Part shown: positions 9,301 to 26,124 of the stretch, piece by piece
How the letters are laid out: the number at the start of each line of letters is the position of its first letter
How positions within the stretch are numbered: the stretch's first letter is position 1
The notes under the pieces: generated by a model
Database searches by the model: none
What the model saw: only the letters and a program-made list of their open reading frames with translations
Told to the model about the DNA's origin: nothing
Program-made: the position numbers and the translations under genes
DNA from: an uncultured Candidatus Saccharibacteria bacterium
Lineage (GTDB): Bacteria; Patescibacteriota; Minisyncoccia; Phycocordibacterales; UBA2100
Assembly: GCA_964534465.1 (NCBI GenBank)
Contig: CAZHOB010000003.1
Span: 14,843-78,842 of the forward strand
DNA length: 64,000 nt
Direction: 5' to 3'

Positions 9301-10224
9301 TTAGAAGACGGCTGCCTCCTCTTTTAGTTCAATGCCAAATTTTGATTTCACAGCCTCCTTCACTTTCTCGGCTAGTTGGCGGACGTCTTGTGCCGTTGCA
9401 TTGCCTTGATTGACGATGTAATTGGGATGCTGGAGACTTGCTATCGCGCCGCCGACCGTCGCACCCTTCATGCCCGCATTTTCGATAAGCCAGCCGGCGG
9501 GGACGCGGCTTTCGCGGGATTTTACTCCTTTTTCTTTTTCGAACATCTCGACGATATTTTGCGGCGCGGTCGGGTTCATAAAATACGAGCCCGCGGCGCG
9601 CACGTTCTGCAAATGTCTCTTTTCGCGCTCGGCTATCGTTTCTGTAATCAAGCGCTCGCTGTCCCCCCTCTTCACTTGGTGCAATTCCAAAATGACGCGG
9701 GTGATTATCCAATTCGGGTTGTCCTTGAAAAAACTGTGGCGATATGAAAAATCGCAGACGATGTTCTCGAATTCGCGCATCTCCCCCGTTGCCATATCAA
9801 AAGCGCGTACAAGCGTAACAAAATCCTTGATCTCAGAACCAAAAGCGCCTGCGTTGCCGCGCACAGCGCCGCCTATCGTGCCGGGAATACCGGACAATTT
9901 TTCCCAGCCGCCTAAATTGCGTTCGGAAGCTTTCGAAATGAGCTGCGAGAGATCGCATCCCGCATCCGCAGCCAATTCGTTGCCGGCAAAAGAATTGTCG
10001 GCACTCTCGATATGGATGAGGAGTGCGTCGAGCCCTTCATCGGGTATGAGGACATTGCTCCCGCCCGCGAGGATAATGGGTCTTATGCTGTTCTCGTGCG
10101 CCCAGCCGACGGCTTCCCGTATTTCATCCTCAGTCTTTACGGATACAAAATAGCGCGCGTTGCCACCGATCTGAAACGTCGTCATTGGCGCGAGCGGCAC
10201 ATTCTCCCTTACCGAAATGCTCAT
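9301..10224 (-). CDS. murB: UDP-N-acetylenolpyruvoylglucosamine reductase
   Basis: FAD-binding MurB N-terminus (VPLAPMTTFQIGGNARYF) and C-terminal MurB domain. Start set to internal Met whose ATG overlaps the NUDIX gene stop (ATGA overlap). Confidence 0.9.
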   Translation of the reverse strand: MSISVRENVPLAPMTTFQIGGNARYFVSVKTEDEIREAVGWAHENSIRPIILAGGSNVLIPDEGLDALLIHIESADNSFAGNELAADAGCDLSQLISKASERNLGGWEKLSGIPGTIGGAVRGNAGAFGSEIKDFVTLVRAFDMATGEMREFENIVCDFSYRHSFFKDNPNWIITRVILELHQVKRGDSERLITETIAEREKRHLQNVRAAGSYFMNPTAPQNIVEMFEKEKGVKSRESRVPAGWLIENAGMKGATVGGAIASLQHPNYIVNQGNATAQDVRQLAEKVKEAVKSKFGIELKEEAAVF

Positions 10225-10652
10225 ATGCGATAAAAAAGCTTGATGCAGCCGTCTAGATCTATCATCAGATCCGACATCAGTAGTGCGCCCTGCGGGGTGA
10301 CCCAAGTGTAGGCAACGTGTTCTTCGGAAAGCGTCACCTCCGGCGACTCATCGCAATAATAGTAGTAAATATGAAAGACAACGTCCCTATCGGGATAGCG
10401 CAGAAATATGGTTTTAAAAAAATGTAATTTCGACATATGAACGACAATGCCGGATTCTTCTCGCAATTCTCTTATGATCGCTACGCGAGAGTCTTCAGCG
10501 TGCTCCAATTTACCGGCCGGAATAGCCCATCTATTTGCTTCATAGGATTTAGCTGAGCGCCGAAGCAGCAAAAATTTGCCGTTATGCTCCACAAAACAAC
10601 TTGCCGCCTCAATTCGCGGCTTGAAATCTGCAGGCTGCTCCAGAAATATCAT
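10221..10652 (-). CDS. NUDIX hydrolase
   Basis: Nudix box GKLEHAEDSRVAIIRELREESGI (GX5EX7REUXEEXGU). Confidence 0.8.
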   Translation of the reverse strand: MIFLEQPADFKPRIEAASCFVEHNGKFLLLRRSAKSYEANRWAIPAGKLEHAEDSRVAIIRELREESGIVVHMSKLHFFKTIFLRYPDRDVVFHIYYYYCDESPEVTLSEEHVAYTWVTPQGALLMSDLMIDLDGCIKLFYRI

Positions 10653-12700
10653 GCTTTCATTCTAACCTCCTTTTCCAAAGCCGTAATTTCGTCTCGAATT
10701 AATGCCGCTGTCTCGAAGTCGAGACCGTCGGCCGCTTCATGCATCTGCCGGCGCTTCTCGCGGATCAATTTCGTCATATCGCCACCGAATGCTGATGCGT
10801 CCATCTGTGCAAGCTCGGATACAGCGCGCTTACGCGATCTCTCGATGTCCGCAGTGATGTCGTGTATCTTCTTTTGTATCGTCTTCGGAGTGATGTTGTG
10901 GGCTTTGTTGTAAGCCATTTGTTTCTCGCGGCGGCGGTTGGTCTCACCTATCGCGCGCTCCATCGAGCCAGTCATCTGATCAGCGTACAGAAGTACGCGG
11001 CCGTGCACGTTGCGCGCGGCGCGGCCAATGGTCTGAATAAGCGATGTTTCGCTGCGCAGAAATCCTTCTTTGTCGGCGTCGAGAATTCCGACCAGTTCTA
11101 CTTCGGGAAGGTCGAGTCCTTCGCGCAGGAGGTTGACGCCGACGAGCACGTCGAAAATACCCTTGCGAAAATCCCTTAATATCTCAATGCGCTCAATGGT
11201 AAGTACATCGCTGTGCACGTAGCGCGCCTTGATACCCCTCTCCGTGAGGAATTGCGTGAGATCCTCGGCCATTTTCTTCGTAAGTACCGTAACCATCGAA
11301 CGCGCACCGCGCTTGGTTACCGCCTCCGCCTCGGCAATGAAATCTTTAACCTGCCCCTGATATTGACTTTCGTCCGTAACATTTTCTTGTTGTGCAAGCT
11401 TAGCTTTCACAACAGTGGCTGAAACTATGGGTCGGACGATTATCTCGGGATCGACAAGACCTGTGGGACGGATGACCTGCTCTACAGGCATGCCACTGCG
11501 TTCCAGTTCAAATTTTGAGGGCGTCGCCGAAGTATAGAGCGTCTGACCGATGCGTTCTTGAAATTCTGCAAATGTGAGCGGCCTGTTGTCCACCGCACTT
11601 GGGAGACGGAAACCGTGCTCGACGAGTGTCTCTTTGCGTGAACGATCGCCCGCGTACATTGCGCCTATTTGCGGCACCGTTACGTGCGATTCATCGATAA
11701 TGAGGAGAAAATCCTTGGGGAAGTATGAGAGCAACGTATAGGGCGGCTCGCCGGGCTTTCGCCTGTCGAAATGTCGCGAATAATTCTCAATGCCGTTACA
11801 AAATCCGAACTCGCGTATCATCGCGATATCCTGTCGCGTGCGGCGCTTGAGACGCTCTGCTTCGAGGATTTTGCCTGCGGCGTTCAACACTTTTAGCCTA
11901 TCCGCAAGCTCCTGCTCGATATCGGCGAGCGCGGCCTCGAGCACATCTTTGGGTGTCACGTATTGTCTCGCGGGAAAAATGAATATCGCATCGTGCTTTG
12001 CGGAGATCGCGCGGGTCATTGCGTCGATCTCTTCAATTTTGGAAATTTTGCCACCGGTCAGGTCGACGCGATAGACGACGCGCTCGCTCGCCGGCATGAT
12101 CTCTACGGCCGCGCCGAGCGCGCGAAATGTGCCGGGCTTCAGGTCGCCGGTCACGCGCTCAAAATAGATCGAAATGAGTTTTCGGGTCAGTGTAGCGCGA
12201 GTCATCCGCTCGTCCTTCGAGAGTTTCAAATTCACTTTTTCATATTCGACCGGACTCCCGAGGCCGTAGATGCAGGAGACCGAAGCCACCACTATCACAT
12301 CTTTGCGTGTAAGCAAAGCCTGCGTACATGCATGACGTAAACGTTCGATGTCTTCATTTATCTGCGCTTCTTTCTCGATGTAGGTATCAGTAACAGGCAC
12401 GTACGCCTCCGGTTGGTAGTAGTCGTAATACGAAACAAAATAATGCACGGCATTGTCGGGAAAAAATTCACGATACTCTGAGGCGAGCTGCGCAGCGAGC
12501 GTTTTGTTGTGCGCGACGACGAGCGTCGGCCTCTGCGTCTTTTCTATGATGTTGGCCACCGTGAAGGTCTTGCCCGAGCCGGTCACGCCAAGGAGCGTCT
12601 GGTCCTTTTTGCCAGCTTTTAAGCCATTATAGAGCGCCTCTATTGCCTTCGGCTGATCGCCGTCGGGCTTGTAGTCGGATTTGATCTTGAACTTCGCCAT
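10649..12700 (-). CDS. uvrB: Excinuclease ABC subunit B
   Basis: MAKFKIKSDYKPDGDQPKAI start. Helicase motif I TGSGKTF. UvrB beta-hairpin region. C-terminal UVR domain (ETAALIRDEITALEKE). Confidence 0.95.
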   Translation of the reverse strand: MAKFKIKSDYKPDGDQPKAIEALYNGLKAGKKDQTLLGVTGSGKTFTVANIIEKTQRPTLVVAHNKTLAAQLASEYREFFPDNAVHYFVSYYDYYQPEAYVPVTDTYIEKEAQINEDIERLRHACTQALLTRKDVIVVASVSCIYGLGSPVEYEKVNLKLSKDERMTRATLTRKLISIYFERVTGDLKPGTFRALGAAVEIMPASERVVYRVDLTGGKISKIEEIDAMTRAISAKHDAIFIFPARQYVTPKDVLEAALADIEQELADRLKVLNAAGKILEAERLKRRTRQDIAMIREFGFCNGIENYSRHFDRRKPGEPPYTLLSYFPKDFLLIIDESHVTVPQIGAMYAGDRSRKETLVEHGFRLPSAVDNRPLTFAEFQERIGQTLYTSATPSKFELERSGMPVEQVIRPTGLVDPEIIVRPIVSATVVKAKLAQQENVTDESQYQGQVKDFIAEAEAVTKRGARSMVTVLTKKMAEDLTQFLTERGIKARYVHSDVLTIERIEILRDFRKGIFDVLVGVNLLREGLDLPEVELVGILDADKEGFLRSETSLIQTIGRAARNVHGRVLLYADQMTGSMERAIGETNRRREKQMAYNKAHNITPKTIQKKIHDITADIERSRKRAVSELAQMDASAFGGDMTKLIREKRRQMHEAADGLDFETAALIRDEITALEKEVRMKA

Positions 12701-15370: not shown

Positions 15371-15786
15371 TTACGAAGCGAGCAGGGGGGCGCCCGCGAA
15401 TTCTTTCGCTTTCGCGGCAGCAAAGCGTTTTGCTTCGACGAAGCGATGCAGAGATTCAGCTGCGCCGTCTCGCCCGCCGGCACGCTTGTGGCGCGCGTAG
15501 TTGATGTCCTGCGGCATCTGATCGATCAAGTCGAAGAAGAAGGACTGCGTTTCCGTGACGTCGGAAAGCCTCCGGCGTAGAATGCGTGCGCCATCACAAA
15601 CGTATCGGTGTTGTGCCTCGAAGGCAAGCTCGAGGACGACATCCATTTGCTCCGCTGTAAGGGAAAGTGCGAGGCCAACACGCGCAAGGCATATGTGTCC
15701 CGACCCCACTCCCGCCTCGGCAAGTTTGACGAGCCTCTCGAGCACTTCTTCTCTCGTCAGGTTGAAATTCAACTGAAGCTGCTTCA
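15371..15786 (-). CDS. Small protein, member 1 of a three-paralog family (unknown function)
   Basis: Start at MKQLQLNFNLTREEV with RBS AAAGGAGCGACAG and upstream TTGACA-17-TATTAAT promoter. About 45% identical to 17064-17489. Conserved core ERI[IV].LAEAGVGSG.[IL]CLARVGLALSLT.[EQ]Q. Confidence 0.6.
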
Positions 15787-15884
15787 TCTGTCGCTCCTTT
15801 GTTTGCATTACCGAATACATTAATACAACATGTCGTGATTTATGTCAAGAAAAAAAGCGCGACCACATCGCCGCGCTTCGAGAT

Positions 15885-16415
15885 TCAGTTGAGCGTTCGC
15901 TTCGGCCGAACCGGCGGATCGTCATCTCCGTCGGTATCTTCCGTATCATCCGGCATGTCATCATCCGGTTCGCCCTCTAGCGCTTCGTCTATCGCGTCGG
16001 TCTGATCTCTCACGAATTGGCTAAGGACGAAGACGAGCTCGTCGCCATCGAGTGCGCCGAGCCGGAGACCTTCGGCTATCGCATTGATGGCTACCTGCGC
16101 GCCCGCATGCCCGCCCTTTTGGAGCGGACCGGAATAGTTGATCTTGGTCACGATGAGCTTTTGCAGAAGCGCGTCCTGAAAATCAGTGGCGTCCATCAAG
16201 AGCTCCTGCAGCGCCTGCTCTCCGCCTGAATGGTTCGCATCAGCGACCCTGCGCGCCAAAGCTTTGGCGATCTTTGCCTGCTCATCGCTCAAGGTGAGCG
16301 CGAGCAGCGCGCGACAACTGCATTTCGGATCGCAGCCGATATTCGCATTCTCGAGTATGACTATCCGCTCGACTATCGTATCAAAATCGAACACTTCAGT
16401 TTCATCGTCGCTCAT
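15885..16415 (-). CDS. Acidic-tailed protein, divergent member of the same paralog family
   Basis: Start MSDDETEV with RBS AGGAG. N-terminal region VERIVILENANIGCDPKCSCRALLALTLSDEQ aligns with the conserved core of the two flanking paralogs. C-terminal 40 aa almost pure D/E/P/T (EGEPDDDMPDDTEDTDGDDDPP). Hairpin terminator downstream. Confidence 0.6.
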   Translation of the reverse strand: MSDDETEVFDFDTIVERIVILENANIGCDPKCSCRALLALTLSDEQAKIAKALARRVADANHSGGEQALQELLMDATDFQDALLQKLIVTKINYSGPLQKGGHAGAQVAINAIAEGLRLGALDGDELVFVLSQFVRDQTDAIDEALEGEPDDDMPDDTEDTDGDDDPPVRPKRTLN

Positions 16416-16536
16416 TGCAAACTCCTTTCTATTCCACTGCTCACGGTAGCGCCTGTGGCACAACAGTCAACGCACCGCCGGGAACAACTGCATTCACGGA
16501 GCTGATATAGTTTACGGAGAGCAACGGAGGTTACCG

Positions 16537-17010
16537 ATGAAAACGATGCTGAAAACTGCGATTTTGTGCGCCGGCCTATTTCTGCTGACTCCTCTCGCAT
16601 CACATGCCGCCGGACCATTCGATGGTTTGGCGGGACAGTGGCTGGGGGCGGGCCGGATCAATTACACCAACGGTACCGGCGAAAAGATCCGATGTCAGAT
16701 CGCCTATAGCGTGCCCAAAAGCACGGACATGAACTTGCATCTGGTCTGCGCGAGCGAAAGCTACAAGATAGACGCGTATTCTTCGGTGCATCTGGAGAAG
16801 GAGACTGTCAGCGGTTCATGGCAGGAGATGAGCCTGAATCTCAGCGGAACCGTTTCGGGAACAGCGAAGGATAACGTTATCAACGTCATCCTCACCGGCC
16901 AGCTCGCGTTGCGGCTGGTCGTGGAGACCAAGGGAGCAGAACAGACCGTGTGGATCGTTCCGCAGGAAGGTTTGCCTCTGAAGAACGTGAAGATCAACAT
17001 GCACAAGTAG
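16537..17010 (+). CDS. Secreted protein with signal peptide (157 aa)
   Basis: N-terminal MKTMLKTAILCAGLFLLTPLASHAAGP signal peptide. Beta-rich composition. Bidirectional terminator agagccccgacgctgatagcgtgcggggctct at 17020-17055. Confidence 0.55.
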   Translation: MKTMLKTAILCAGLFLLTPLASHAAGPFDGLAGQWLGAGRINYTNGTGEKIRCQIAYSVPKSTDMNLHLVCASESYKIDAYSSVHLEKETVSGSWQEMSLNLSGTVSGTAKDNVINVILTGQLALRLVVETKGAEQTVWIVPQEGLPLKNVKINMHK

Positions 17011-17063: not shown

Positions 17064-17489
17064 TCAACCCTGAAAACAGGGAGCTGCAAGGCAAGGAACG
17101 CGAGTGGACTCGATGCCCCTCGACTTGAAGAGGCCCGTGACAAAACGGTACAGCGAATCCTCCGCGTGGAGGCGACCGCCGACCGACTTGTGGCTCGCAT
17201 ACTCGCTGTCTTGCGGCATTTCTTCGATAAGCTCGAAGAAGAACTTTTGGGTCTCCGTGAGATCGCGGAGCCTGTACCTCAACATTGATGCGTCGCCTCG
17301 CACGTGGCGCAACTGAACATCGTCGACGAGAGTCCTCACGATGCTCATCTGCTGCTCGGTGAGCGAAAGTGCGAGACCGACTCGTGCGAGACACAGAAAT
17401 CCTGAGCCAACGCCCGCCTCGGCGAGCTCGATGATGCGCTCAAGGACTTCTTCGCGGGTCAATTCGTAGTTGAACTGAAGCTTGGCCAT
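17064..17489 (-). CDS. Small protein, member 3 of the three-paralog family
   Basis: MAKLQFNYELTREEVLERIIELAEAGVGSGFLCLARVGLALSLTEQQ.. paralogous to 15371-15786. Confidence 0.6.
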   Translation of the reverse strand: MAKLQFNYELTREEVLERIIELAEAGVGSGFLCLARVGLALSLTEQQMSIVRTLVDDVQLRHVRGDASMLRYRLRDLTETQKFFFELIEEMPQDSEYASHKSVGGRLHAEDSLYRFVTGLFKSRGIESTRVPCLAAPCFQG

Positions 17490-17552: not shown

Positions 17553-18086
17553 TCACTGCTGCACCAGTTCGGCAAATCGCTTGCGTACTTTTTCGAGTTT
17601 GGGTTCGATAATGAGCTGACAGTACGGCGCGCTTTTGTTTTCTTGGTAATAATTCTTGTGATATTCCTCGGCGGGATAGAATTTTCCCAATTGAATGACC
17701 TGCGTGACCACGCGCGTGCCGTCTTTGAGAGACTCGTCAACTTCTTTTATGATTTTTTCGGCGGTCGCTTTCTCCTCATCCGTTCCATACAAAATGACGG
17801 AACGATATTGTTCACCCATATCATTCCCCTGCCGATTAGGCGTGGTCGGGTCGTGCGAGCCGAAAAAGACCGTGAGGAGATCTTGAAATGTGATAATAGC
17901 CGGATCATAGGTGACGCGGATGACTTCAGCGTGACCGGTCGAGCCCGCACTCACCTGCTCATACGAAGGATTTTCCATTTTGCCGCCGGCATAGCCGGAT
18001 TCCACTTTCGACACACCCTTCAGCATCTGAAAAACCGCCTCTGTGCACCAGAAACATCCACCTCCAAATACCGCCGTCTTTTGCAT
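17553..18086 (-). CDS. msrA: Peptide methionine sulfoxide reductase A
   Basis: Active-site motif GGGCFWCTEAVF. Length 177 aa. Confidence 0.9.
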   Translation of the reverse strand: MQKTAVFGGGCFWCTEAVFQMLKGVSKVESGYAGGKMENPSYEQVSAGSTGHAEVIRVTYDPAIITFQDLLTVFFGSHDPTTPNRQGNDMGEQYRSVILYGTDEEKATAEKIIKEVDESLKDGTRVVTQVIQLGKFYPAEEYHKNYYQENKSAPYCQLIIEPKLEKVRKRFAELVQQ

Positions 18087-18131
18087 CGATTGATTGTATC
18101 AAATCGCCCAGCTCGTATAATCCTCATATCA

Positions 18132-18689
18132 ATGTCTCAAGCTCATGAAGATGAGGGGCTTATCGAAGAATACCTCTCCGGCAACGATGACGCGTTGTCG
18201 GAAATAGTGGCGCGGCACATACGTGCGACGCATGCCTTTGCACTCCGACTCACCGGCGAGCCAAGTGATGCTGAAGAGATCGTGCAGGAGAGTTTTTTGA
18301 AAGCGTGGAAGTCGCTCAAGAATTTCGATGCAAAAAAGGCACGGTTCAAGACGTGGCTTATGCGTATCGTTCGCAACACGGCCATAGATCATTTGCGGCG
18401 TGCGAAAGCGGATATTTCGCTCGATTATGGAGACGAGCCGCTTGCACTCACCGTGCATGATGATGCGCCGCTTCCCGATGAGATCGCCGCGAGCAAAGAA
18501 GATCAAGCTGCTCTCGAGAAAGCGCTCGGTCAACTATCTGCGCTTCAGAGAGAGCTTCTGCTTCTCTACAACGGCAATGACTTTTCATTTGAGGAGATAG
18601 CCGAGATCCGCGGCGAATCGCGCAATACCATAAAGAGCCGCTACCGACGTGCCCTAGAAGCACTGAAAAAGCTCGTGCACCCAAAATGA
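18132..18689 (+). CDS. ECF-type sigma-70 family RNA polymerase sigma factor
   Basis: Sigma70 region 2 (..FLKAWKSLKNFDAKKARFKTWLMRIVRNTAIDHLRR..). Region 4 HTH (..ELLLLYNGNDFSFEEIAEIRGESRNTIKSRYRRALEALKK). Start set to MSQAHEDEG. The long upstream ORF extension overlaps msrA on the other strand. Confidence 0.85.
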   Translation: MSQAHEDEGLIEEYLSGNDDALSEIVARHIRATHAFALRLTGEPSDAEEIVQESFLKAWKSLKNFDAKKARFKTWLMRIVRNTAIDHLRRAKADISLDYGDEPLALTVHDDAPLPDEIAASKEDQAALEKALGQLSALQRELLLLYNGNDFSFEEIAEIRGESRNTIKSRYRRALEALKKLVHPK

Positions 18690-18705
18690 CATCGCGTCCG
18701 TATAT

Positions 18706-19182
18706 ATGAGTATGACGGGCGACGTAGAGCGAGAGAACTGCAAAGGCTCTGCTTCTGCAGTTCCGAGCCGAGGAGCCCGAAACCAACGGAGCTTGTTTAC
18801 GGAGCATGGCATACGGCTGTTTCATGACCCCGAAACACCCCGGGAACTCACAAACAGAGTTCTCGCTCGTATCGCACATGCACGCCTGCGCGCCGCGAGG
18901 CTTCGCCTCGCGGCGCTCGGCGCCGTCATGGCACTCTCGGCACCCACGCTCTGGATATCCCTGCAGTACGCTATGCATGAACTCTACATTTCCGGATTTT
19001 ATGATTACCTCTCACTCGCCTTATCGGCTCCCGCGTATTGGCAGGATCTCTCCCTCTCGCTTGTCGAATCGCTTCCCTCCCTCGCGATCCTCGCGTTCGT
19101 TGCCGCTGCGCTCGCTTTTTGCTGGTCGCTGTGGCGCTCATTCCGACACCTTCGTGTAGTTATTAATCCGCGATTCGCTTGA
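18706..19182 (+). CDS. Putative anti-sigma factor / membrane protein
   Basis: Immediately downstream of ECF sigma. Contains two hydrophobic helices (ALGAVMALSAPTLWISL, LAILAFVAAALAFCWSLW). No recognisable catalytic motif. Assignment by position only. Confidence 0.35.
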   Translation: MSMTGDVERENCKGSASAVPSRGARNQRSLFTEHGIRLFHDPETPRELTNRVLARIAHARLRAARLRLAALGAVMALSAPTLWISLQYAMHELYISGFYDYLSLALSAPAYWQDLSLSLVESLPSLAILAFVAAALAFCWSLWRSFRHLRVVINPRFA

Positions 19183-19189
19183 CTACCGT

Positions 19190-19642
19190 ATGGAAAAAAT
19201 TGAACACTTTATCCAGTCGCATCGCGGCCGCAAGATAATTCTCGGCGTCGGCATCGCGCTCATCGCCATCCTCATCTTCCACGCGGGTGTCGTCGTGGGT
19301 ATGCATCGCCATGCACGCGGCGAATTCGGCGTCAGCCGCGGACCCGGAGGCTTTTTCATCGCGCGAATGCCACACGGATTTATAGAGGACGGGCACGGCG
19401 CTGTGGGCGTCATTAATTCAGTCACTAAGACATCTTTCAAATTGCAGGGTCGCGATGGTTCTGTCCAGACAGTTCTCATATCGGATACGACGGTCGTCCG
19501 TTCATTCGACGGAGATGCGAGCACGAGCGCGCTCAAAAAAGGCGCTCGTGTAATAGTGCTCGGCGCGCCGGATTATAATGGTGATATCTCTGCGCACCTT
19601 GTTCAGATCGTGCCGGATTCCATGCCATTTCCGCAACAATAA
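19190..19642 (+). CDS. Small membrane-anchored protein, paralog 1 (beta-rich domain of unknown function)
   Basis: N-terminal TM (KIILGVGIALIAILIF). C-terminal region (TSFKLQGRDGSVQTVLISDTTVV..KKGARVIVLG..NGDISAHLVQIVP) aligns with 23504-23953 (TSITVQL..IVLYNTTTEIG..KVGENVVVNGS..DGSITAQMIQIRP). Confidence 0.5.
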   Translation: MEKIEHFIQSHRGRKIILGVGIALIAILIFHAGVVVGMHRHARGEFGVSRGPGGFFIARMPHGFIEDGHGAVGVINSVTKTSFKLQGRDGSVQTVLISDTTVVRSFDGDASTSALKKGARVIVLGAPDYNGDISAHLVQIVPDSMPFPQQ

Positions 19643-19647
19643 ATATC

Positions 19648-21441
19648 ATGCCTATTTTTCGTACCATTGCCCGGTATATCGGCGCGCACAAAGTGCTTAG
19701 TGTGATCCTGGCCATAGCAATAATCGGCGGCGGATATTGGGAGTACAAGCGTCTGACGAATACCTCCGGCGAAACGCACTACGTACTGACCACTGTCTCG
19801 CGCGGTACCATCATCGCCACGGTCTCCGGCAGTGGACAGGTGTCCTCCGAGAATCGCGTCGACATCCATCCCAAAGCTTCCGGTGACCTGATTTCAATAG
19901 TGGTAAAAGATGGCTCTACGGTGGAAGCAGGACAAGCGCTCGGCTATCTCGATGCCAAAGACGCGCAAAAGGCTGTTCGCGACGCGCAGGCGAGCCTCGA
20001 AAGCGCGCAGATATCGCTGCAAAAGTTGCAACAACCAGCCGACCGGCTCACGCTCACGCAAGCGCAAAACGCCTCCGACAACGCCAAGATCGATCTCGAT
20101 AACGCCTACGAAACGGCGTTCAATGATATTTCCAACACATTTTTGGATCTTCCGACCGTCATGACAGGACTCAATTCCGTGCTCTTTTCATACGACCGCA
20201 CGCTCGGCGGTTCCAATCAGCAGAATATTGATTTTTATCAAAATGCCATCGCCCAATATGCGACCCTCGCGCTGGCGCAGCAGTATCGCGATGATGCCAA
20301 CACCAAGTACTTGGCAGCGAAAGCGGCGTACGACAAGGCGTTTGCCACGTACAAGACGACGAGCCGCACGGCGAGCACCGATTCGATAGAGTCGCTGCTC
20401 AAGAGCACGTACGAAATGACGCAGCAGATATCCGACGCAGTAAAAGATACGACCAACCTCATTCAGCTCTACCAAGACACGCTGACGCAGCACACTCTGA
20501 CGCCGGCAAATACTTCTACGACGCAACTGACCTCTCTCAACGGCTACACTTCAACGGTCAATTCGAGCCTGACCTCGCTCTCCTCATCGGTCAGCGCCAT
20601 TGCGACGGATAAACAAAAGGTCACTGAATCGGCGCAGTCGCTTGATAAAACCATCTCCGGTGCAGATGCACTCGACGTGCAATCTTCGCAGCTCTCCGTG
20701 ACGCAGCGACAAAACGCGCTGCAGGATGCCAAGGATGCTCTCGCAGATTACACGGTGCGCGCGCCCTTCGCAGGCATCATCGGCAATATAACCGCACACA
20801 AGGGCGATTCAGTTTCGGGCGGCACGACCATCGCCACTATTGTGGGCACACAACAAATAGCGCAGCTCTCGCTCAATGAAGTCGACGCCGCGAAAGTGAA
20901 GGTCGGCCAAAAAGCGACGCTTACGTTCGACGCGATAGAAGACCTCTCTATCGCCGGCACTGTCGCGGATATCAATCCTATCGGCGCGGTATCGCAGGGC
21001 GTCGTCAGCTACACGATCAAGATCGCTTTTGCCGCGAACGATCCGCGCGTCAAACCGGGCATGACCGTGAACGCGACGATACAGACTGATGTAAAGCAAG
21101 ACGTTCTGATGGTGCCCACGAGCGCGGTCAAGACGATGAACAACGCAAGCACGGTGCAGGTCTTTGATCCGCCTTTGCCGGATGCTGCCGTAACGGCTGC
21201 GGGCGCACAGGGCGTCGTTTGGAAGAGTGCGCCGTCGCCCATGAATGTCCAAACCGGTATTTCCGATGACACAAATGTGGAAATAATTTCGGGATTGTCC
21301 GAAGGTCAGCAAGTCGTCGCGCGTACGATATCAGGGACAGCGAGTGCTGCAGCAGCGAAGACGACTACCACGCGCACGACCGGCGGCGCACGCGGACCGG
21401 GGGCGGAGGGCGGAGGAGTCTTCTTCGGCCGCGGAGGATAA
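19648..21441 (+). CDS. HlyD/MacA-family periplasmic adaptor (membrane fusion protein), extended form
   Basis: N-terminal TM. Biotinyl-lipoyl-like segment (RGTIIATVSGSGQVSSENRVDIHPKASGDLISIVVKDGSTVEAGQALGYLD). Long Q/A/T/S-rich coiled coil. Second lipoyl half (DYTVRAPFAGIIGNITAHKGDSV) and beta-barrel. Gly/Ala-rich C-terminal tail. 597 aa, longer than typical MacA. Confidence 0.75.
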   Translation: MPIFRTIARYIGAHKVLSVILAIAIIGGGYWEYKRLTNTSGETHYVLTTVSRGTIIATVSGSGQVSSENRVDIHPKASGDLISIVVKDGSTVEAGQALGYLDAKDAQKAVRDAQASLESAQISLQKLQQPADRLTLTQAQNASDNAKIDLDNAYETAFNDISNTFLDLPTVMTGLNSVLFSYDRTLGGSNQQNIDFYQNAIAQYATLALAQQYRDDANTKYLAAKAAYDKAFATYKTTSRTASTDSIESLLKSTYEMTQQISDAVKDTTNLIQLYQDTLTQHTLTPANTSTTQLTSLNGYTSTVNSSLTSLSSSVSAIATDKQKVTESAQSLDKTISGADALDVQSSQLSVTQRQNALQDAKDALADYTVRAPFAGIIGNITAHKGDSVSGGTTIATIVGTQQIAQLSLNEVDAAKVKVGQKATLTFDAIEDLSIAGTVADINPIGAVSQGVVSYTIKIAFAANDPRVKPGMTVNATIQTDVKQDVLMVPTSAVKTMNNASTVQVFDPPLPDAAVTAAGAQGVVWKSAPSPMNVQTGISDDTNVEIISGLSEGQQVVARTISGTASAAAAKTTTTRTTGGARGPGAEGGGVFFGRGG

Positions 21442-21462
21442 TTCTGGGAGTGGCGCGCGCAT

Positions 21463-22179
21463 ATGATAGAAGTCAAAGACATCACCAAAACATACGGGTC
21501 GGGCGAAACGGCCTTCCAGGCGCTCGCAGGCGTGTCATTCACGATAGAAGACGGCGAGTTCGTCGCCATCATGGGACCAAGCGGCTCCGGCAAATCTACG
21601 CTCATGCATATCCTCGGCTGCCTCGATACGCCTACATCGGGCACGTATCATCTCGACGGAAAAGATATTTCAACGCTCGATGACGATGCGCTGGCGGAGA
21701 TCCGCAAAGACAAGGTGGGATTTGTTTTTCAGGCGTTCAATCTCCTGCCGCGCGCCACGGTACTGCGCAATGTGATGCTGCCACTCGTGTATGCGGGCGT
21801 CAGTGAAGATGAGCGGGTGCGACGCGCGACGAGCGCGCTCCACGCTGCCGGTCTGACCGAGACTCACTTTTTTCACAAGTCGAATCAGATATCCGGAGGA
21901 CAGATCCAGCGCGTAGCGATAGCTCGTGCTCTCGTGAATAATCCGTCACTCATCTTGGCCGACGAACCGACGGGCAACCTCGACACCAAGACGGGCGAGA
22001 TCGTGCTCGGAACATTCCAAAAACTCAACAAGGAGAGCGGCCGCACCATCGTGCTCATCACGCATGAGAAAGATGTGGCCGAGCACGCCGCGCGCATCAT
22101 CACGATCCGCGACGGACTCATTACAGCTGATTCAAAAGCCCACACCCGCCGCCACGCGCACCATGAAGCACAACATTAG
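21463..22179 (+). CDS. ABC transporter ATP-binding protein (MacB/LolD-type)
   Basis: Walker A GPSGSGKST. Signature LSGGQIQRVAIARAL. Walker B ILADEPTGNLD. Confidence 0.9.
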   Translation: MIEVKDITKTYGSGETAFQALAGVSFTIEDGEFVAIMGPSGSGKSTLMHILGCLDTPTSGTYHLDGKDISTLDDDALAEIRKDKVGFVFQAFNLLPRATVLRNVMLPLVYAGVSEDERVRRATSALHAAGLTETHFFHKSNQISGGQIQRVAIARALVNNPSLILADEPTGNLDTKTGEIVLGTFQKLNKESGRTIVLITHEKDVAEHAARIITIRDGLITADSKAHTRRHAHHEAQH

Positions 22180-22230
22180 ACCACATTTAATAGTTGTGAA
22201 AGCTAAGCTTGCACAACAAGAATACAAAAT

Positions 22231-23457
22231 ATGAGAACTGTCGATATTTTACGGGAAACATATACGTCGCTATCGGCCAACAAGACGCGGTCGAGTTTGA
22301 CCATCCTCGGCATCGTCATCGGCATCGCGTCGGTCATCGCGATGGTATCCATCGGCACGGGGGCATCCAACACCATTTCATCGAGCATAGAATCCCTCGG
22401 CTCGAATCTCATCATGGTCATGCCGGGGCAATCGCGCGGTGGGCCGGGCTTTGGCGCATTCGGCGGTCGTGGCGGTGCAAAGACGCTCACGCAGGCCGAC
22501 GAAGAAGCTATCGTGCAGCAAGTCGCAAATATCGCCGCCATCGATCCCGAAGTGAACGGCCGCTACCAGATCACCGCAAAAGGGACGAATACCAATACGA
22601 GCGTCACCGGCGTAACGAGCGCGTATACGCGTGTACGCAATATGGATATAGACGAAGGTTCGTTCATCACCGATCAGCACACCGCTTCCGCCGCCAAGGT
22701 AGCGGTGCTCGGGCCGACGACGCGTGACGACCTTTTTGGCGTCGGCGCGGAAGCCGTAGGCCAGAGCATCCGCATCAACGGTCTCGAATTCAAAGTTATC
22801 GGGATCACGAAATCCAAAGGTGGCACCGGTTTTGGCAATCAGGACGACGTCATCTTTATCCCCGTCACCAGCGCGCAGCGCTACATGTCGGGCGATCAGT
22901 ATCTCTCCACCATCGCCATACAGGCGCAAAACACCGGCGAAATGACGCAAGTACAATCCGACATTACGACGCTTCTCCTCACACGCCACAAGATATCCGA
23001 TCCGACGCAAGCAGACTTCACTGTGCTCAATCAAAACGACATCCTCGCGACAGCGTCCGGAGTCACGGCCACGCTTACCTATCTGCTCGCGGCTATCGGC
23101 GGTATTTCGCTTCTCGTCGGCGGGATAGGCATTATGAACATGATGCTGACGACCGTGACCGAACGCACCAAAGAGATCGGGCTGCGCAAAGCGATAGGCG
23201 CAAAAAATAAAGACATAAGCACGCAATTCCTCGCCGAAGCGATAGCGTTCACACTTATCGGCGGCGTCATTGGCATCGCGCTCGGCTGGCTTATTTCATA
23301 CGGCATCAATCTGACAGGCACGGTGAAAACGAGCGTCTCGCTCTCATCAGTGCTCCTCGCATTCGGCGTTTCCGCTGCTACCGGCATCATCTTCGGCTAC
23401 TACCCCGCGCGCAAGGCCTCCCAAATGAATCCCATCGAAGCACTTCGTTATGAGTGA
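22231..23457 (+). CDS. ABC transporter permease, FtsX/MacB family
   Basis: N-terminal TM. Large periplasmic MacB_PCD-like domain. C-terminal FtsX 3-TM bundle (..LLVGGIGIMNMMLTTVTERTKEIGLRKAIGA..). Confidence 0.85.
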   Translation: MRTVDILRETYTSLSANKTRSSLTILGIVIGIASVIAMVSIGTGASNTISSSIESLGSNLIMVMPGQSRGGPGFGAFGGRGGAKTLTQADEEAIVQQVANIAAIDPEVNGRYQITAKGTNTNTSVTGVTSAYTRVRNMDIDEGSFITDQHTASAAKVAVLGPTTRDDLFGVGAEAVGQSIRINGLEFKVIGITKSKGGTGFGNQDDVIFIPVTSAQRYMSGDQYLSTIAIQAQNTGEMTQVQSDITTLLLTRHKISDPTQADFTVLNQNDILATASGVTATLTYLLAAIGGISLLVGGIGIMNMMLTTVTERTKEIGLRKAIGAKNKDISTQFLAEAIAFTLIGGVIGIALGWLISYGINLTGTVKTSVSLSSVLLAFGVSAATGIIFGYYPARKASQMNPIEALRYE

Positions 23458-23503
23458 GCGATGGGATGGGGTGGTTGGGGCTTACTAGATAGTTGAATAG
23501 AAT

Positions 23504-23953
23504 ATGGACAGTAAATTTATCGGTGCGCTTATCGTGGTCGCGCTCGTTGCGGGAGGCGGAGGTTATTTTGCGGGGACAAAAAACGCCGGCGCGCAGAGCG
23601 GCCCGCAATCGGGTCAGCGAATTTTTACGAGAAACGGCGGCGGAGGTCGCTTCGGCGGCGCAGGTGCGGCATTCGGCACGATAGTGGCCAAAGATGCGAC
23701 ATCCATAACTGTGCAGCTCATGGGCGGTCCAAATGCTTCTTCAACGAACGGAAGCGCGACCGGCTCCAAGATCGTGCTCTACAATACGACCACGGAGATC
23801 GGGAAAACAGTGACCGGCGCGGACACTGATCTCAAAGTCGGAGAAAATGTCGTCGTCAATGGTTCGGCAAATAGCGACGGCTCAATCACGGCACAAATGA
23901 TACAGATCCGTCCTGCCGGAATGAACCAGCCCTTCGGCCGCAGACAGCAGTAA
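23504..23953 (+). CDS. Small membrane-anchored protein, paralog 2 of 19190-19642
   Basis: N-terminal TM (FIGALIVVALVAGGGG). Gly-rich linker. Domain homologous to 19190-19642. Confidence 0.5.
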   Translation: MDSKFIGALIVVALVAGGGGYFAGTKNAGAQSGPQSGQRIFTRNGGGGRFGGAGAAFGTIVAKDATSITVQLMGGPNASSTNGSATGSKIVLYNTTTEIGKTVTGADTDLKVGENVVVNGSANSDGSITAQMIQIRPAGMNQPFGRRQQ

Positions 23954-23994
23954 AAAGTGATGCCGCGGCGTATTGCTCGCCGCGGCATAGAAAG

Positions 23995-24321
23995 CTAGTC
24001 AAAAGAAAGTTCTGCCGGAAAGTGCTTGACCTGGCGACCATGCTCCTCGTGCGGCCAATCAATGAAGACTGCGGACAGTGAGTCATGTACTGACAACCTC
24101 AGAAAATCGTATGTTTCAGTTGCCGTTGGTCCATCGAGGTAGATGTCCGTAAACATCACCGAGTGATCTATCCGCCGGACCTTGCCCACGATAATAGTCG
24201 GGGACTCGATGATGCCCCCACCATCAGGGATCGTGATCGTAACTACGCGACCGATCAGCTCCTTCGATGGCGGCAATTTTACTTTTGCCAATTCCGCGTC
24301 CAGCGCTTCCCGAGAACCCAT
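23995..24321 (-). CDS. Hypothetical protein (108 aa)
   Basis: RBS ACGGAGGAACGC before ATG. Confidence 0.45.
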   Translation of the reverse strand: MGSREALDAELAKVKLPPSKELIGRVVTITIPDGGGIIESPTIIVGKVRRIDHSVMFTDIYLDGPTATETYDFLRLSVHDSLSAVFIDWPHEEHGRQVKHFPAELSFD

Positions 24322-24378
24322 GGCGTTCCTCCGTTTGTTGCCGGAACGTACAATACAACATTATTGCTTGGGTCGCAA

Positions 24379-24443
24379 GAGCGGAAACAATTGCGTCTCG
24401 TGCGCAGGTTTGTTCTCAAGGAAGGCGAAGGCGTTCGGAGACG
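24379..24443. repeat. Diverged duplicate of the lysS 3' terminus (remnant copy)
   Basis: 65 nt about 95% identical to 24701-24766. On the minus strand still encodes FAFLENKPAHETQLFPLLRPKQ + stop versus lysS C-terminus FAFLENKPAHETQLFPLLRPRN + stop. Confidence 0.7.
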
Positions 24444-24491
24444 TATAAAAATAGCCGCGGCATTTCTGCCGCGGCTCGGATCGATCTGCTA

Positions 24492-24641
24492 TTAACACGG
24501 GCAGCGAGGGCCCGGGAGGTCACCGGGAGCATGAGGTGCCGGGTGTTCCGGAATGACATAGGGACCCGAAACGATCATGGCCCCGAGAAAGGCAACCGCA
24601 AAAAACCAAACAATGACTCGTGCGACGGTAACCTTATTCAC
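24492..24641 (-). CDS. Small membrane peptide (49 aa) located between the lysS 3'-end repeats
   Basis: GTG start preceded by strong RBS GGAGGAAATCGC. Hydrophobic helix VARVIVWFFAVAFLGAMIV then Pro-rich tail ending PRCPC. Confidence 0.35.
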   Translation of the reverse strand: MNKVTVARVIVWFFAVAFLGAMIVSGPYVIPEHPAPHAPGDLPGPRCPC

Positions 24642-24681
24642 GCGATTTCCTCCGAAGTTTTGAGTCTTTCGCAATTATACC

Positions 24682-26124
24682 TTAATTTCGAGGACGTAAA
24701 AGCGGAAACAATTGCGTCTCGTGCGCAGGTTTGTTCTCAAGGAAAGCGAAGAGGCGTTCGGAGACGCCGAAGCCAAAGGCTGGCGGCATGCCGTACTCCA
24801 TCGCGCGAATGTAGTTTTCGTCGAGCCTCTGGGCTTCGTCGTCGCCGGCGTCGCGCAGGCGCTGCTGCTCTTCGAATCGCGCACGCTGGTCGAGCGGGTC
24901 ATTGAGCTCGCTAAAGCCCTTTCCCATTTCGCTACCGGCGATGATGACCTGCAGGCGCTCCACCGTCTCGGGCTTTTGCACGAAGCGCTTAGCGAGCGGC
25001 TCGAGAAATACCGGAATGCCGACCAAGAACGCGGGGCCGGCGATGGTTTTGCGCACGGATTTCCAAAGGTGGTCGACGGCGCGGGCTTTGTTGAGTTTTT
25101 CCCCTACCTGAATCTGCGCGTCGCGCACGGCCTGAATAGCTTCGTCTTCGGAGCAGGCGATCGGGTCGATACCGAACTTCTCTTGGATTATTTTGCAAAA
25201 ATCGATAACTCCCCACTCTTCGGCAAGGTCCACCGTGTGCCCATTGATCTCAAAGGTGTATTTGCCGTAAACTTCTTTGGCGAGATGACGATACAGGTCT
25301 TTGACGAAGTCGCCGCCTTTTTTGAGGTCGCTAAAAGCTTCGTAACTCTCGAGCTGTGTGTAATCCTGCAAATGCTCGCGCGACTGGCCTTCGTTGCGAA
25401 AAATGCGCCCTATTTCAAATACCTTTGGATAGCCGGCGACAAGAAGCTCCTTTTGCCACAACTCGCCGGCGGAAATGCGTAGATACACATCAATATCGAG
25501 CGCATGGTGATGTGTTACAAAGGGTCGCGCGTCGGCTCCGCCGGGTGATGATTCGAGCACCGGCGTTTCCACTTCCAGAAATCCACGCGAAAGATAGAAT
25601 TCGCGCGCCGCCTGCCAAAATTTGGCGCGACGCTCGAACATCGCCCGCGTATCAGCGTTGAGGAGTATTTCGAGATATCGCTCGCGCAATCGCAGTTCTT
25701 CGTCTTTGACCCCGAAGTGTTCAGATGGAATGGGCAAAAGCGACTTGGCGAGCATTTTCCATTCCTTCACCTTCAGCGATTCCTTTCCGCGTTGCGTTTT
25801 GAACGCGGCACCTGTGACCTCGATAAAATCACCGATATCTACCGCTTGGGAAAAAAGGTCGAACGCAGATGCGCTCATCTCAGACTGCTGCAAAACCACT
25901 TGACCACGGGCTCCATCGAAGAGGTCGGCGAACATTATTCCGCCTTGGCCACGTAATGACATCACGCGCCCCGCCAGGACGCCATTTTTACCCTCCCCAA
26001 AATCTGCAAAAAAATCCGCGATTGAAGTGTCTCGTTCCGTGCTCGCGGGATACGCATCCATTCCCGCAGCCTTCAAAAGGTCGAGTTTCTTCAGTCTTTC
26101 CGAGCGAATATCCGCCTCCGACAT
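24682..26124 (-). CDS. lysS: Lysine--tRNA ligase (class II)
   Basis: N-terminal OB anticodon-binding domain. Class II motifs (..FLEVETPVL.., ..GIPVFLEPLAKRFVQKPETVERLQVIIAGSEMGKGFSELNDPLDQ..). Confidence 0.9.
   Translation of the reverse strand: MSEADIRSERLKKLDLLKAAGMDAYPASTERDTSIADFFADFGEGKNGVLAGRVMSLRGQGGIMFADLFDGARGQVVLQQSEMSASAFDLFSQAVDIGDFIEVTGAAFKTQRGKESLKVKEWKMLAKSLLPIPSEHFGVKDEELRLRERYLEILLNADTRAMFERRAKFWQAAREFYLSRGFLEVETPVLESSPGGADARPFVTHHHALDIDVYLRISAGELWQKELLVAGYPKVFEIGRIFRNEGQSREHLQDYTQLESYEAFSDLKKGGDFVKDLYRHLAKEVYGKYTFEINGHTVDLAEEWGVIDFCKIIQEKFGIDPIACSEDEAIQAVRDAQIQVGEKLNKARAVDHLWKSVRKTIAGPAFLVGIPVFLEPLAKRFVQKPETVERLQVIIAGSEMGKGFSELNDPLDQRARFEEQQRLRDAGDDEAQRLDENYIRAMEYGMPPAFGFGVSERLFAFLENKPAHETQLFPLLRPRN
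24701..24766. repeat. lysS 3'-terminal coding segment (functional copy of the direct repeat)
   Basis: Partner of 24379-24443. Lies inside the lysS CDS just before its stop codon. Confidence 0.7.

Follow-up and report, generated by a model that had tools for sequence, protein, structure and literature searches.

A conserved two-module operon of Patescibacteria in which an extracytoplasmic function sigma factor module is linked to a MacB-type pump and two DUF5666-type proteins

The window analyzed here, a 64,000-nucleotide stretch of contig CAZHOB010000003.1 from a metagenome-assembled genome of the Patescibacteria (candidate phyla radiation, CPR), carries at positions 18132-23953 of its plus strand a cassette of seven open reading frames (ORFs) that represents a real operon, conserved across many of these ultra-small bacteria. 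The operon is composed of two modules: an extracytoplasmic function (ECF) sigma factor, a small protein with two predicted transmembrane (TM) helices (the 2-TM protein) and a membrane-anchored DUF5666 protein (DUF5666-A), which are present or absent together, and a MacB-type pump made of a membrane fusion protein (MFP), an ATP-binding cassette (ABC) ATPase and a permease, which is accompanied by a second DUF5666-like protein (DUF5666-B). We favor, with moderate confidence, the interpretation that this two-module operon encodes an envelope-stress- or toxin-responsive MacB efflux system. All core components belong to known families; the novelty lies in the conserved combination, the split or fused sigma partner with its candidate sensor of oligonucleotide/oligosaccharide-binding (OB) fold, and the second OB-fold protein as a fixed companion of the pump.

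As first proposed from the raw letters, the seven genes are co-oriented and tightly spaced. In order, they encode the sigma factor (18132-18689, 185 residues), the 2-TM protein and candidate anti-sigma factor (18706-19182, 158 residues), DUF5666-A (19190-19642, 150 residues), the MFP of the periplasmic-adaptor family (19648-21441, 597 residues), the ABC ATPase as a separate polypeptide (21463-22179), the permease (22231-23457) and DUF5666-B (23504-23953, 149 residues), with successive intergenic gaps of 16, 7, 5, 21, 51 and 46 nt; in the cassettes of relatives 4-nt gene overlaps occur. Spacing and conserved gene order both argue for co-transcription.

To evaluate conservation, 80 metagenomic loci were fetched via alignment to the MFP and all of their ORFs were scored with a profile of each component. 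The gene order recurs in this set and is kept in seven species-level genomes with different flanking genes, the cassette being found in genomes labelled Paceibacterota, Adlerbacteria, 'Saccharibacteria' and Minisyncoccia. Such recurrence of the arrangement in dozens of independent contigs is far beyond chance. Counts upstream of the pump were taken from the 57 loci with at least 1.9 kb of sequence 5' of the MFP gene, and those downstream from the 48 loci in which the permease gene is complete and followed by 700 nt or more. The sigma module is present in 49 of the 57: sigma factor, 2-TM protein and DUF5666-A lie directly 5' of the MFP in 41, the 2-TM protein and DUF5666-A are present with the sigma gene farther off in 2, and the sigma gene is followed by a single fused protein of about 245-258 residues in the remaining 6. 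DUF5666-B directly follows the permease in 42/48 loci, comes after an inserted ABC pair in 2/48 and is missing in 4/48, and it is kept in all seven evaluable loci that lack the sigma module (7/7). The cassette thus resolves into the two modules outlined above, and the description of the locus as a sigma-linked exporter other than a textbook MacAB holds well.

The fused protein, which replaces the 2-TM protein and DUF5666-A in eight loci (the six counted above plus L013 and L034), consists of a short N-terminal cytoplasmic helix, three TM segments and a C-terminal DUF5666-like barrel. Its three TM segments and OB domain equal the sum of the 2-TM protein and of the single TM helix and OB domain of DUF5666-A, a Rosetta-stone pattern which suggests that the two split proteins function as a single unit that has its OB domain on the outer side of the membrane. 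When the fused proteins were scored with the hidden Markov model (HMM) of the 2-TM family, their N-terminal half gave no match, so the equivalence is positional and topological rather than one of sequence. Furthermore, the sigma factors co-vary with their partners: scored against the sigma factor of the window, those next to a split partner reach 86-166 bits (n = 51) and those next to a fused partner 45-80 bits (n = 8), with no overlap, as would be expected of cognate sigma/anti-sigma pairs. Three loci encode, beside the fused-type sigma module, a protein of ~150-190 residues that is probably helical and has an N-terminal hydrophobic segment and a Gly/His-rich C-terminus (such as 'GRHHHGGFGF' or 'GMRGGFRF'). 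Its gene separates the fused partner from the MFP in L058 (5448-5897) and L085 (4008-4472) and lies 5' of the sigma gene in L013 (3824-4387). On the pump side, four loci (L009, 11409-12206; L010, 11390-12187; L058, 9844-10698; L086, 6861-7649) carry an insertion that separates DUF5666-B from the MacB permease: an additional ABC ATPase gene, followed by enough space for a permease gene.

The sigma factor matches Sigma70_r2 (80 bits, residues 26-92) and Sigma70_r4_2 (48 bits, residues 127-178) in Pfam, where r4 is matched as well, and scores 117 bits against TIGR02937 (cut-off 42.9). With regions 2 and 4 as the sole sigma domains in its 185 residues and regions 3 and 1.1 absent, it is an ECF (group 4) sigma factor, and its nearest solved counterparts are SigW (5wuq, 4.8e-19) and then CnrH (4cxf, 3.5e-16), a ranking to be read with the caveat that all ECF sigmas are alike. 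In every surveyed locus that has the sigma gene, a conserved membrane protein follows it, and in 51 loci this position between sigma factor and DUF5666-A is held by the 2-TM gene. The encoded protein begins with a basic N-terminal cytoplasmic helix ('GL...IL.RIA.ARRR.AR.R'), followed by TM1 (predicted at residues 66-84), a conserved outside loop (motifs 'EFYASGFYDYLSL.FSD...YW' and 'EFYASGFYDYLSL...YW..SLSL.ESLPS'), TM2 (residues 125-143) and a short basic tail. Its homologs, all 'hypothetical' and 120-140 (about 130) residues long, align from approximately residue 30 of the window ORF, so that translation may really begin farther 3', the TTG at 18793 being one candidate. We sought a family name for the protein, and the Pfam, NCBIfam, PDB-profile and homolog searches returned solely 'hypothetical protein'.

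Class I anti-sigma factors carry an N-terminal four-helix domain of ~80-90 residues, often with an H-x3-C-x2-C motif, for which Pfam holds the zf-HC2 and RskA models. With a cytoplasmic N-terminus of ~35-45 residues devoid of conserved Cys/His, the 2-TM protein falls outside this class (ASD/ZAS); the length of the segment, the predicted basic helix and the TM helix that follows would fit class II, CnrY-like anti-sigma factors, whose helical segment of ~45 residues wraps sigma2/sigma4 ahead of a TM helix; the protein shows no sequence similarity to CnrY itself. The anti-sigma role originally put forward for this protein finds backing in its position, its topology and the co-variation described above, but not in any match to an anti-sigma family in Pfam, NCBIfam or the PDB; on those three grounds we infer that it is an anti-sigma factor.

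The small proteins at the end of the sigma module and at the end of the pump module are indeed paralogs, each with one N-terminal hydrophobic helix, as the original prediction had it: BLASTP aligns them with an E value of 1e-6 across the C-terminal 34 residues, and the family HMMs match reciprocally at 1.9e-10 (A HMM on B) and 2e-11. The C-terminal motif they were said to share is present, but only approximately ('NGDISAHLVQIVP' in A, 'SDGSITAQMIQIRP' in B). DUF5666-A scores 29.9 bits against PF18914, above the gathering score of 27, and is a member of that family; DUF5666-B stays below it at 23.5 bits, and its orthologs carry precomputed PF18914 matches. The domain search therefore places the paralogs in an uncharacterized family and not in a well-characterized one unrelated to transport. 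Both are OB-like DUF5666 proteins, but they are not equivalent, A traveling with the sigma module and B with the pump. The hydrophobic helices end in a similar F-x-[AG]-G-x-x-[VY]-G motif ('F.AG..VG' in A, 'FYGG..YG' in B) and show no consistent signal-peptidase site, and the conservation of this end suggests that each serves as a stable anchor. A cleavable signal peptide on DUF5666-B, hinted at by an AxA site in 3 sequences, was discarded after 52 sequences showed the 'FYGG' anchor end and no consistent cleavage site.

DUF5666 models as a small OB-like beta-barrel. In the AlphaFold2 model of DUF5666-A (predicted local distance difference test score, pLDDT, 86.7), a helix at residues 11-43, corresponding to the TM anchor, is followed by a disordered linker and a seven-strand, predicted extracytoplasmic barrel at residues 70-141, for which Foldseek returns OB, cold-shock and S1-type folds weakly (E 3e-3 to 2e-2), together with the CusF-like C-terminal domain of the MFP SilB (2l55, E 1.4e-2, TM-score 0.59 on the target). 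At E ≤ 1e-10, the DUF5666-A family comprises 1,064 representatives after clustering at 50% identity, almost all of them ~150 residues long, and two distant members (26-30% identity) share the same gene context. Close relatives keep four histidines, H31, H39, H62 and H69 ('IFHAGVVVGSHR...PHGFI..GHGAVG'); among 64 diverse members, near-invariance is confined to the 'HG' at residues 69-70, in the first strand of the barrel. DUF5666-B has the same architecture, with a TM anchor, a Gly/Gln/Arg-rich linker and an OB-like barrel that ends in 'NSDGS.TA.SIQIRP', and its family alignment of 52 sequences contains no conserved His, Met or Cys. A CusF-type metal site (Met/Met/His plus Trp) is thus found in neither protein, A having one nearly invariant His and B none. 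Predicted secreted proteins of ~235 residues with two tandem DUF5666 domains, recognized by their N-terminal hydrophobic segment, are encoded beside the sigma gene in L006 (4496-5200, minus strand), L028 (562-1284), L060 (3820-4524) and L086 (314-1018, minus strand), and up to eight DUF5666 repeats occur in proteins elsewhere.

The MFP scores 138 bits against TIGR01730 (cut-off 94.9) and combines matches to HlyD_D23, HlyD_3 and Biotin_lipoyl_2 with a TM helix at residues 11-29, lipoyl halves at 73-102 and 368-398 and the HlyD_D23 domain at 330-474, all of which identify it as an adaptor. In this family a split lipoyl domain encloses an alpha-helical hairpin and is followed by beta-barrel and membrane-proximal domains, a layout with which the predicted secondary structure of the window MFP agrees. 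Precomputed Pfam matches of homologous MFPs include Beta-barrel_YknX and YknX_C. The Q/T/A-rich alpha region and the Gly-rich tail noted at the outset are readily apparent, residues 104-366 containing 13% A, 12.5% T, 11% S and 10% Q. Its AlphaFold2 model (pLDDT 86.8) features seven helices across 104-366, paired as 104-128/341-366, 133-180/288-337 and 193-237/244-281, and a disordered Gly-rich tail at 565-597. Foldseek retrieves MacA, AcrA and EmrA at E values of 1e-17 to 1e-14, with MacA from the MacAB-TolC assembly as the best match (E 1e-17). MacA aligns in two pieces, residues 20-153 and 330-557, which leaves ~180-200 extra residues in the ~265-residue alpha domain; according to the model, the latter would measure either ~18 nm, if the helix pairs are colinear, or ~11 nm, if the distal pair folds back into a four-helix arrangement. 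The adaptor is therefore longer than MacA, as originally remarked, but this is nothing special to the locus: more than 3,333 homologs are found at E ≤ 1e-20, the best 120 of which are 562-628 residues long, and ~600 residues is the usual MFP length in Patescibacteria.

The ATPase is of the MacB/LolD/FtsE type (ABC_tran 120 bits; N-terminal half of MacB 3.7e-76, LolD 1.9e-67), with Walker A (GPSGSGKS), signature (ISGGQ) and Walker B (LILADE) motifs all intact. The permease covers profile positions 1-206 of 207 of MacB_PCD with residues 21-247 (167 bits) and matches FtsX at residues 288-401 (78 bits); among solved MacB proteins, it aligns with E. coli 5nik_J over the full length (1.2e-63) and with S. 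pneumoniae Spr0695 (5xu1_M, 1e-46). Its hydropathy profile fits four TM helices with a large extracytoplasmic domain between TM1 and TM2, as in type VII ABC permeases, where that domain comprises Porter and Sabre parts and the C-terminal TM bundle is of FtsX type, and MacB scores far above LolC/E (265 vs 41 bits). All four extracytoplasmic components of the cassette contain Gly/Arg/Phe-rich low-complexity stretches, namely the MFP tail (21334-21441, 'GGARGPGAEGGGVFFGRGG'), a loop of MacB (22396-22446, 'GQSRGGPGFGAFGGRGG'), the DUF5666-B linker (23634-23680, 'GGGGRFGGAGAAFG') and the DUF5666-A linker (19322-19350, 'SRGPGGFF'), and the Gly-richness of the MFP tail and of the DUF5666-B linker is also seen in relatives. 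Flexible linkers, contact with the cell wall and mutual recognition are candidate meanings of these stretches.

Patescibacteria are regarded as single-membrane cells, and no OEP/TolC domain, as expected of an outer-membrane factor, was found in the cassette, in the 20 window ORFs of at least 300 residues that were scanned or among the called neighbors in the loci of relatives. We propose a working model in which the 2-TM protein would hold the sigma factor through its short N-terminal cytoplasmic helix, as class II CnrY does, and DUF5666-A would partner it as the external sensor, just as CnrX partners CnrY (PMC6851896). An outside signal that acts on the envelope, possibly an antimicrobial peptide, a toxin or another amphiphile, would alter the DUF5666-A/anti-sigma complex, upon which the released sigma factor would raise expression of the pump and probably of other genes as well. 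The pump itself would work as a mechanotransmission ABC system with a separate ATPase, a four-TM permease, a long MFP and DUF5666-B as a fourth, accessory subunit; the MFP would probably form an oligomeric tube leading from the membrane through the wall of the single-membrane cell, and ATP-driven motion of the external domain of the permease would expel the compound from the membrane surface through this tube.

Several observations weigh against this model. Eight of the 57 loci (14%) contain no sigma-module component; in these the MFP opens the cluster. In L014, the MFP-ATPase-permease trio (9774-11540) lacks both the sigma module and DUF5666-B and is followed by the response regulator and histidine kinase genes of a two-component system; msrA adjoins these genes, and a DUF5666 protein is encoded 3.7 kb downstream. 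This may represent an alternative regulatory wiring of the same pump. Taken together, the sigma-less loci and this two-component system indicate that the pump is not intrinsically sigma-dependent. The candidate anti-sigma factor has a cytoplasmic part of just ~35-45 residues, no Pfam or NCBIfam match at E ≤ 1 with six members searched and, in a profile search at E ≤ 10, no sequence match in the PDB, CnrY included; the weak OB-fold matches of DUF5666-A, in turn, carry no functional information. The promoter region adds to these points. We searched the 160 nt 5' of the sigma gene in 48 loci with fixed patterns (GAAC-N15-19-CGT and variants) as well as with an unbiased two-block 4-mer search, and no ECF-type two-block (-35/-10) promoter rose above shuffled sequences. 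What is enriched is a housekeeping-type signal: the 45-nt divergent region ahead of the operon (18087-18131) contains a TATAAT box (18116-18121) 10 nt 5' of the sigma ATG, and a TATAAT-like -10 box lies 2-15 nt before the sigma start codon in 16 of the 48 related loci, as against 5.5 +/- 2.0 in shuffles. This enrichment suggests that the primary sigma factor makes mRNAs here with little or no leader. Autoregulation of the sigma gene from an ECF-type promoter gains no support from these data, and the operon may largely be transcribed by the primary sigma. Of the sigma-regulated export originally suggested, it is the genetic linkage that stands; with a housekeeping-type -10 box and no ECF-type promoter in the 48 loci, we infer the sigma-dependence of the pump genes from that linkage.

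Much of the same evidence bears on the main rival, a housekeeping exporter of envelope biogenesis comparable to DevBCA or LolCDE, which would handle a lipid, a glycolipid, a lipoprotein or a part of the wall or S-layer and whose level the sigma module would tune. A pump that is near-universal in the phylum would fit such a role, and so would an abundant MFP family of constant length, the existence of loci without any sigma module, the housekeeping-type -10 box ahead of the operon, ATPase scores against LolD and DevA that almost equal those against MacB, and a very long alpha domain suited to a permanent wall conduit. The permease, however, prefers MacB by far over LolC/E, the ECF sigma linked in 86% of the loci is typical of inducible stress functions, and neither the window nor the surveyed loci show genes for the biosynthesis of a candidate cargo in linkage with the pump, so that we hold this explanation to be possible but rather less than probable. 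In an extension of the efflux reading that we regard as unlikely, DUF5666-A would dock on the MFP or on the external domain of MacB and signal to the anti-sigma factor how occupied or active the pump is, as an ECF-sigma equivalent of BceAB-BceS 'flux-sensing', and the ~600-residue MFP would span the CPR wall and S-layer as a conduit of exceptional length, reaching up to ~18 nm should its three helix pairs be colinear; if that were true, the MFP conduit might also serve exchange with host cells.

Metal resistance along the lines of CnrYXH-CnrCBA or CusCFBA, with DUF5666-A as a His-based metal sensor and DUF5666-B as a CusF-like OB chaperone handing metal to the MFP, is distinctly unlikely. The idea arose from the His-rich motif of close DUF5666-A relatives with its four conserved histidines, and was down-weighted since the wider alignment kept one of them, H69; nor does DUF5666-B have any conserved His, Met or Cys. 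The SilB CusF-like domain does match the DUF5666-A model, but as one of many equally weak OB-fold hits (E ~1e-2), and MacB-type pumps are not known to export metals. CnrH is the second nearest solved sigma factor and the three-protein signaling layout is that of CnrH/CnrY/CnrX (PMC6851896), yet CnrX is a four-helix bundle and not an OB fold (PMC6851896). It is more improbable still that a small DUF5666 protein is itself the cargo, Sec-inserted or exported and then released or pushed out by the pump, as enterotoxin STII is by MacAB-TolC. Export of a Sec-delivered periplasmic peptide, known for MacAB-TolC (MacB is reviewed in PMC5985334), offers a model for such a route; A and B each start with an export or anchor sequence and combine a long flexible linker with a small compact domain, and the gene for B closes the pump module in 44/48 loci. 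Nevertheless, the conserved end of the hydrophobic segment and the lack of a consistent signal-peptidase site point to a stable anchor, the folded ~70-residue domain is large for an MFP channel, and A travels with the sigma factor rather than with the pump. Finally, we give next to no credence to the notion that the seven genes are neighbors by chance or local synteny and form no functional unit: the hairpin at the operon end has no T-run on the plus strand, but the same order in dozens of contigs with differing flanks and the gaps of 5-51 nt contradict such a view.

Comparison with known systems places the efflux reading in context. By analogy, the closest functional precedent is B. subtilis YknWXYZ, which likewise operates in a single-membrane host with an MFP (YknX), a separate ATPase (YknY), a permease (YknZ) and a small membrane accessory protein (YknW), and which is under ECF sigma control in Bacillus, SigW being the nearest solved relative of the window's sigma factor. 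Differences lie in the roughly 200 extra alpha-domain residues of the window MFP and in the two OB-like proteins of the window, one of them on the regulatory side. On the Bacillus chromosome sigW-rsiW lie elsewhere, apart from yknWXYZ, and YknW spans the membrane several times and comes from a different family than the TM-anchored OB-fold proteins. The yknWXYZ genes, coding for an MFP, a MacB-type ABC transporter and a small membrane protein, are part of the core sigmaW regulon and protect against the SdpC toxin (PMC3498285, PMC4887032). A three-part regulator beside an MFP-containing efflux pump is also found in Cupriavidus metallidurans CnrYXH-CnrCBA, where the ECF sigma CnrH, a short membrane anti-sigma factor (CnrY, class II, ~45 cytoplasmic residues) and a membrane-anchored sensor (CnrX) control the adjacent pump (PMC6851896). 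That system belongs to a two-membrane bacterium and drives a resistance-nodulation-division (RND) pump with an outer-membrane factor, whereas the window cassette is MacB-type; CnrY has one TM helix as opposed to two in the 2-TM protein, without sequence similarity, and the four-helix bundle of CnrX contrasts with the OB fold of DUF5666-A. Unlike for Cnr, metal sensing is not supported for the window cassette.

Streptococcal Spr0693-0695, a MacAB-like pump of a single-membrane bacterium that acts on antibiotics and antimicrobial peptides (PMC5768738), is by analogy a structural precedent for such a pump without an outer membrane, as its ATPase and permease are separate and its MFP serves as the exit tube (PMC5768738). 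E. coli MacAB-TolC differs in its TolC-type factor, which was absent from the scanned cassette and window, in its shorter MFP, and in lacking the additional sigma module and DUF5666 proteins. A small OB-type barrel protein within an MFP-pump operon, acting outside the cytoplasm with the MFP, is known from E. coli CusCFBA (CusF) and from SilB; the DUF5666 proteins differ in being membrane-anchored and free of a conserved Met/His/Trp site, and the pump is MacB-type, not RND. In the B. subtilis sigY-yxlCDEFG operon, an ECF sigma factor, small membrane negative regulators and an ABC transporter are combined in a single transcription unit. YxlFG, however, is an ABC-2-type transporter without an MFP, the operon has no OB-fold proteins, and its small-protein sequences are unrelated. 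Mentions of the sigY operon are found in PMC7826278 and PMC4105308. In Patescibacteria, macB is merely listed among defense-type genes (PMC12455944), and our literature search found nothing on this cassette, on DUF5666 function or on the ECF sigmas of this phylum.

The genomes of Patescibacteria are tiny and contain very few recognizable envelope or regulatory systems. That the cassette is kept across many of their lineages suggests that it likely matters for survival beside hosts and competitors. It also offers a testable assignment for three 'hypothetical' or DUF families, the 2-TM sigma partner and the two DUF5666 subfamilies. An ECF sigma with a minimal anti-sigma candidate and an OB-fold candidate sensor, wired to a MacB pump, would bring the themes of YknWXYZ and CnrYXH together in a different phylum, while nothing known about MacB pumps is overturned by the cassette itself.

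Named relatives of the cassette proteins all come from Patescibacteria (Paceibacterota, Kaiserbacteria, Adlerbacteria, Sungbacteria, Parcubacteria and Minisyncoccia), and the remainder of the window is ordinary chromosome, with ddl, uvrABC, murB, tyrS, msrA, lysS and genes for G6PD, IMPDH and LigD. No mobile-element signature was seen around the cassette in the window scan, and an Rfam scan of the window returned one tRNA and nothing else. At its 3' end, the cassette is followed by a GC-rich hairpin (23960-23988) between the last stop codon of the operon and a convergent minus-strand gene (23995-24321), with an 11-bp stem of which 9 bp are GC, a T-run on the minus strand and an A-run ahead of the stem on the plus strand; it would serve as the terminator of the plus-strand operon. 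At the 5' end, msrA (17553-18086, minus strand), coding for a peptide methionine sulfoxide reductase, diverges from the cassette 45 nt from the start of the sigma gene. A divergent msrA also precedes the sigma gene in L011 and L040, stands directly ahead of the MFP in three loci where the sigma module is missing (L023, L029 and L067), and lies 2-4 kb away in four more (L005, L009, L014 and L058). This adjacency could reflect a shared regulatory region together with a link to oxidative stress, or mere synteny of the lineage.

Two further features of the window lie outside the cassette. A 60-nt direct repeat (24371-24430 and 24692-24751, 93% identical) copies the 3' end of lysS (24682-26124, minus strand) and encloses ~260 nt with a GC hairpin (24453-24476) and an ORF for a hydrophobic protein of 60 residues (24492-24674, minus strand), an arrangement resembling the target-site or att duplication that a small insertion would leave behind. 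On the other side, two minus-strand paralogs (15371-15820 and 17064-17489) that are 56% identical (E 8e-51) and belong to no Pfam family flank a gene (16537-17010) for a signal-peptide-bearing protein of 157 residues, and a third ORF (15885-16463, minus strand) is weakly similar to them.

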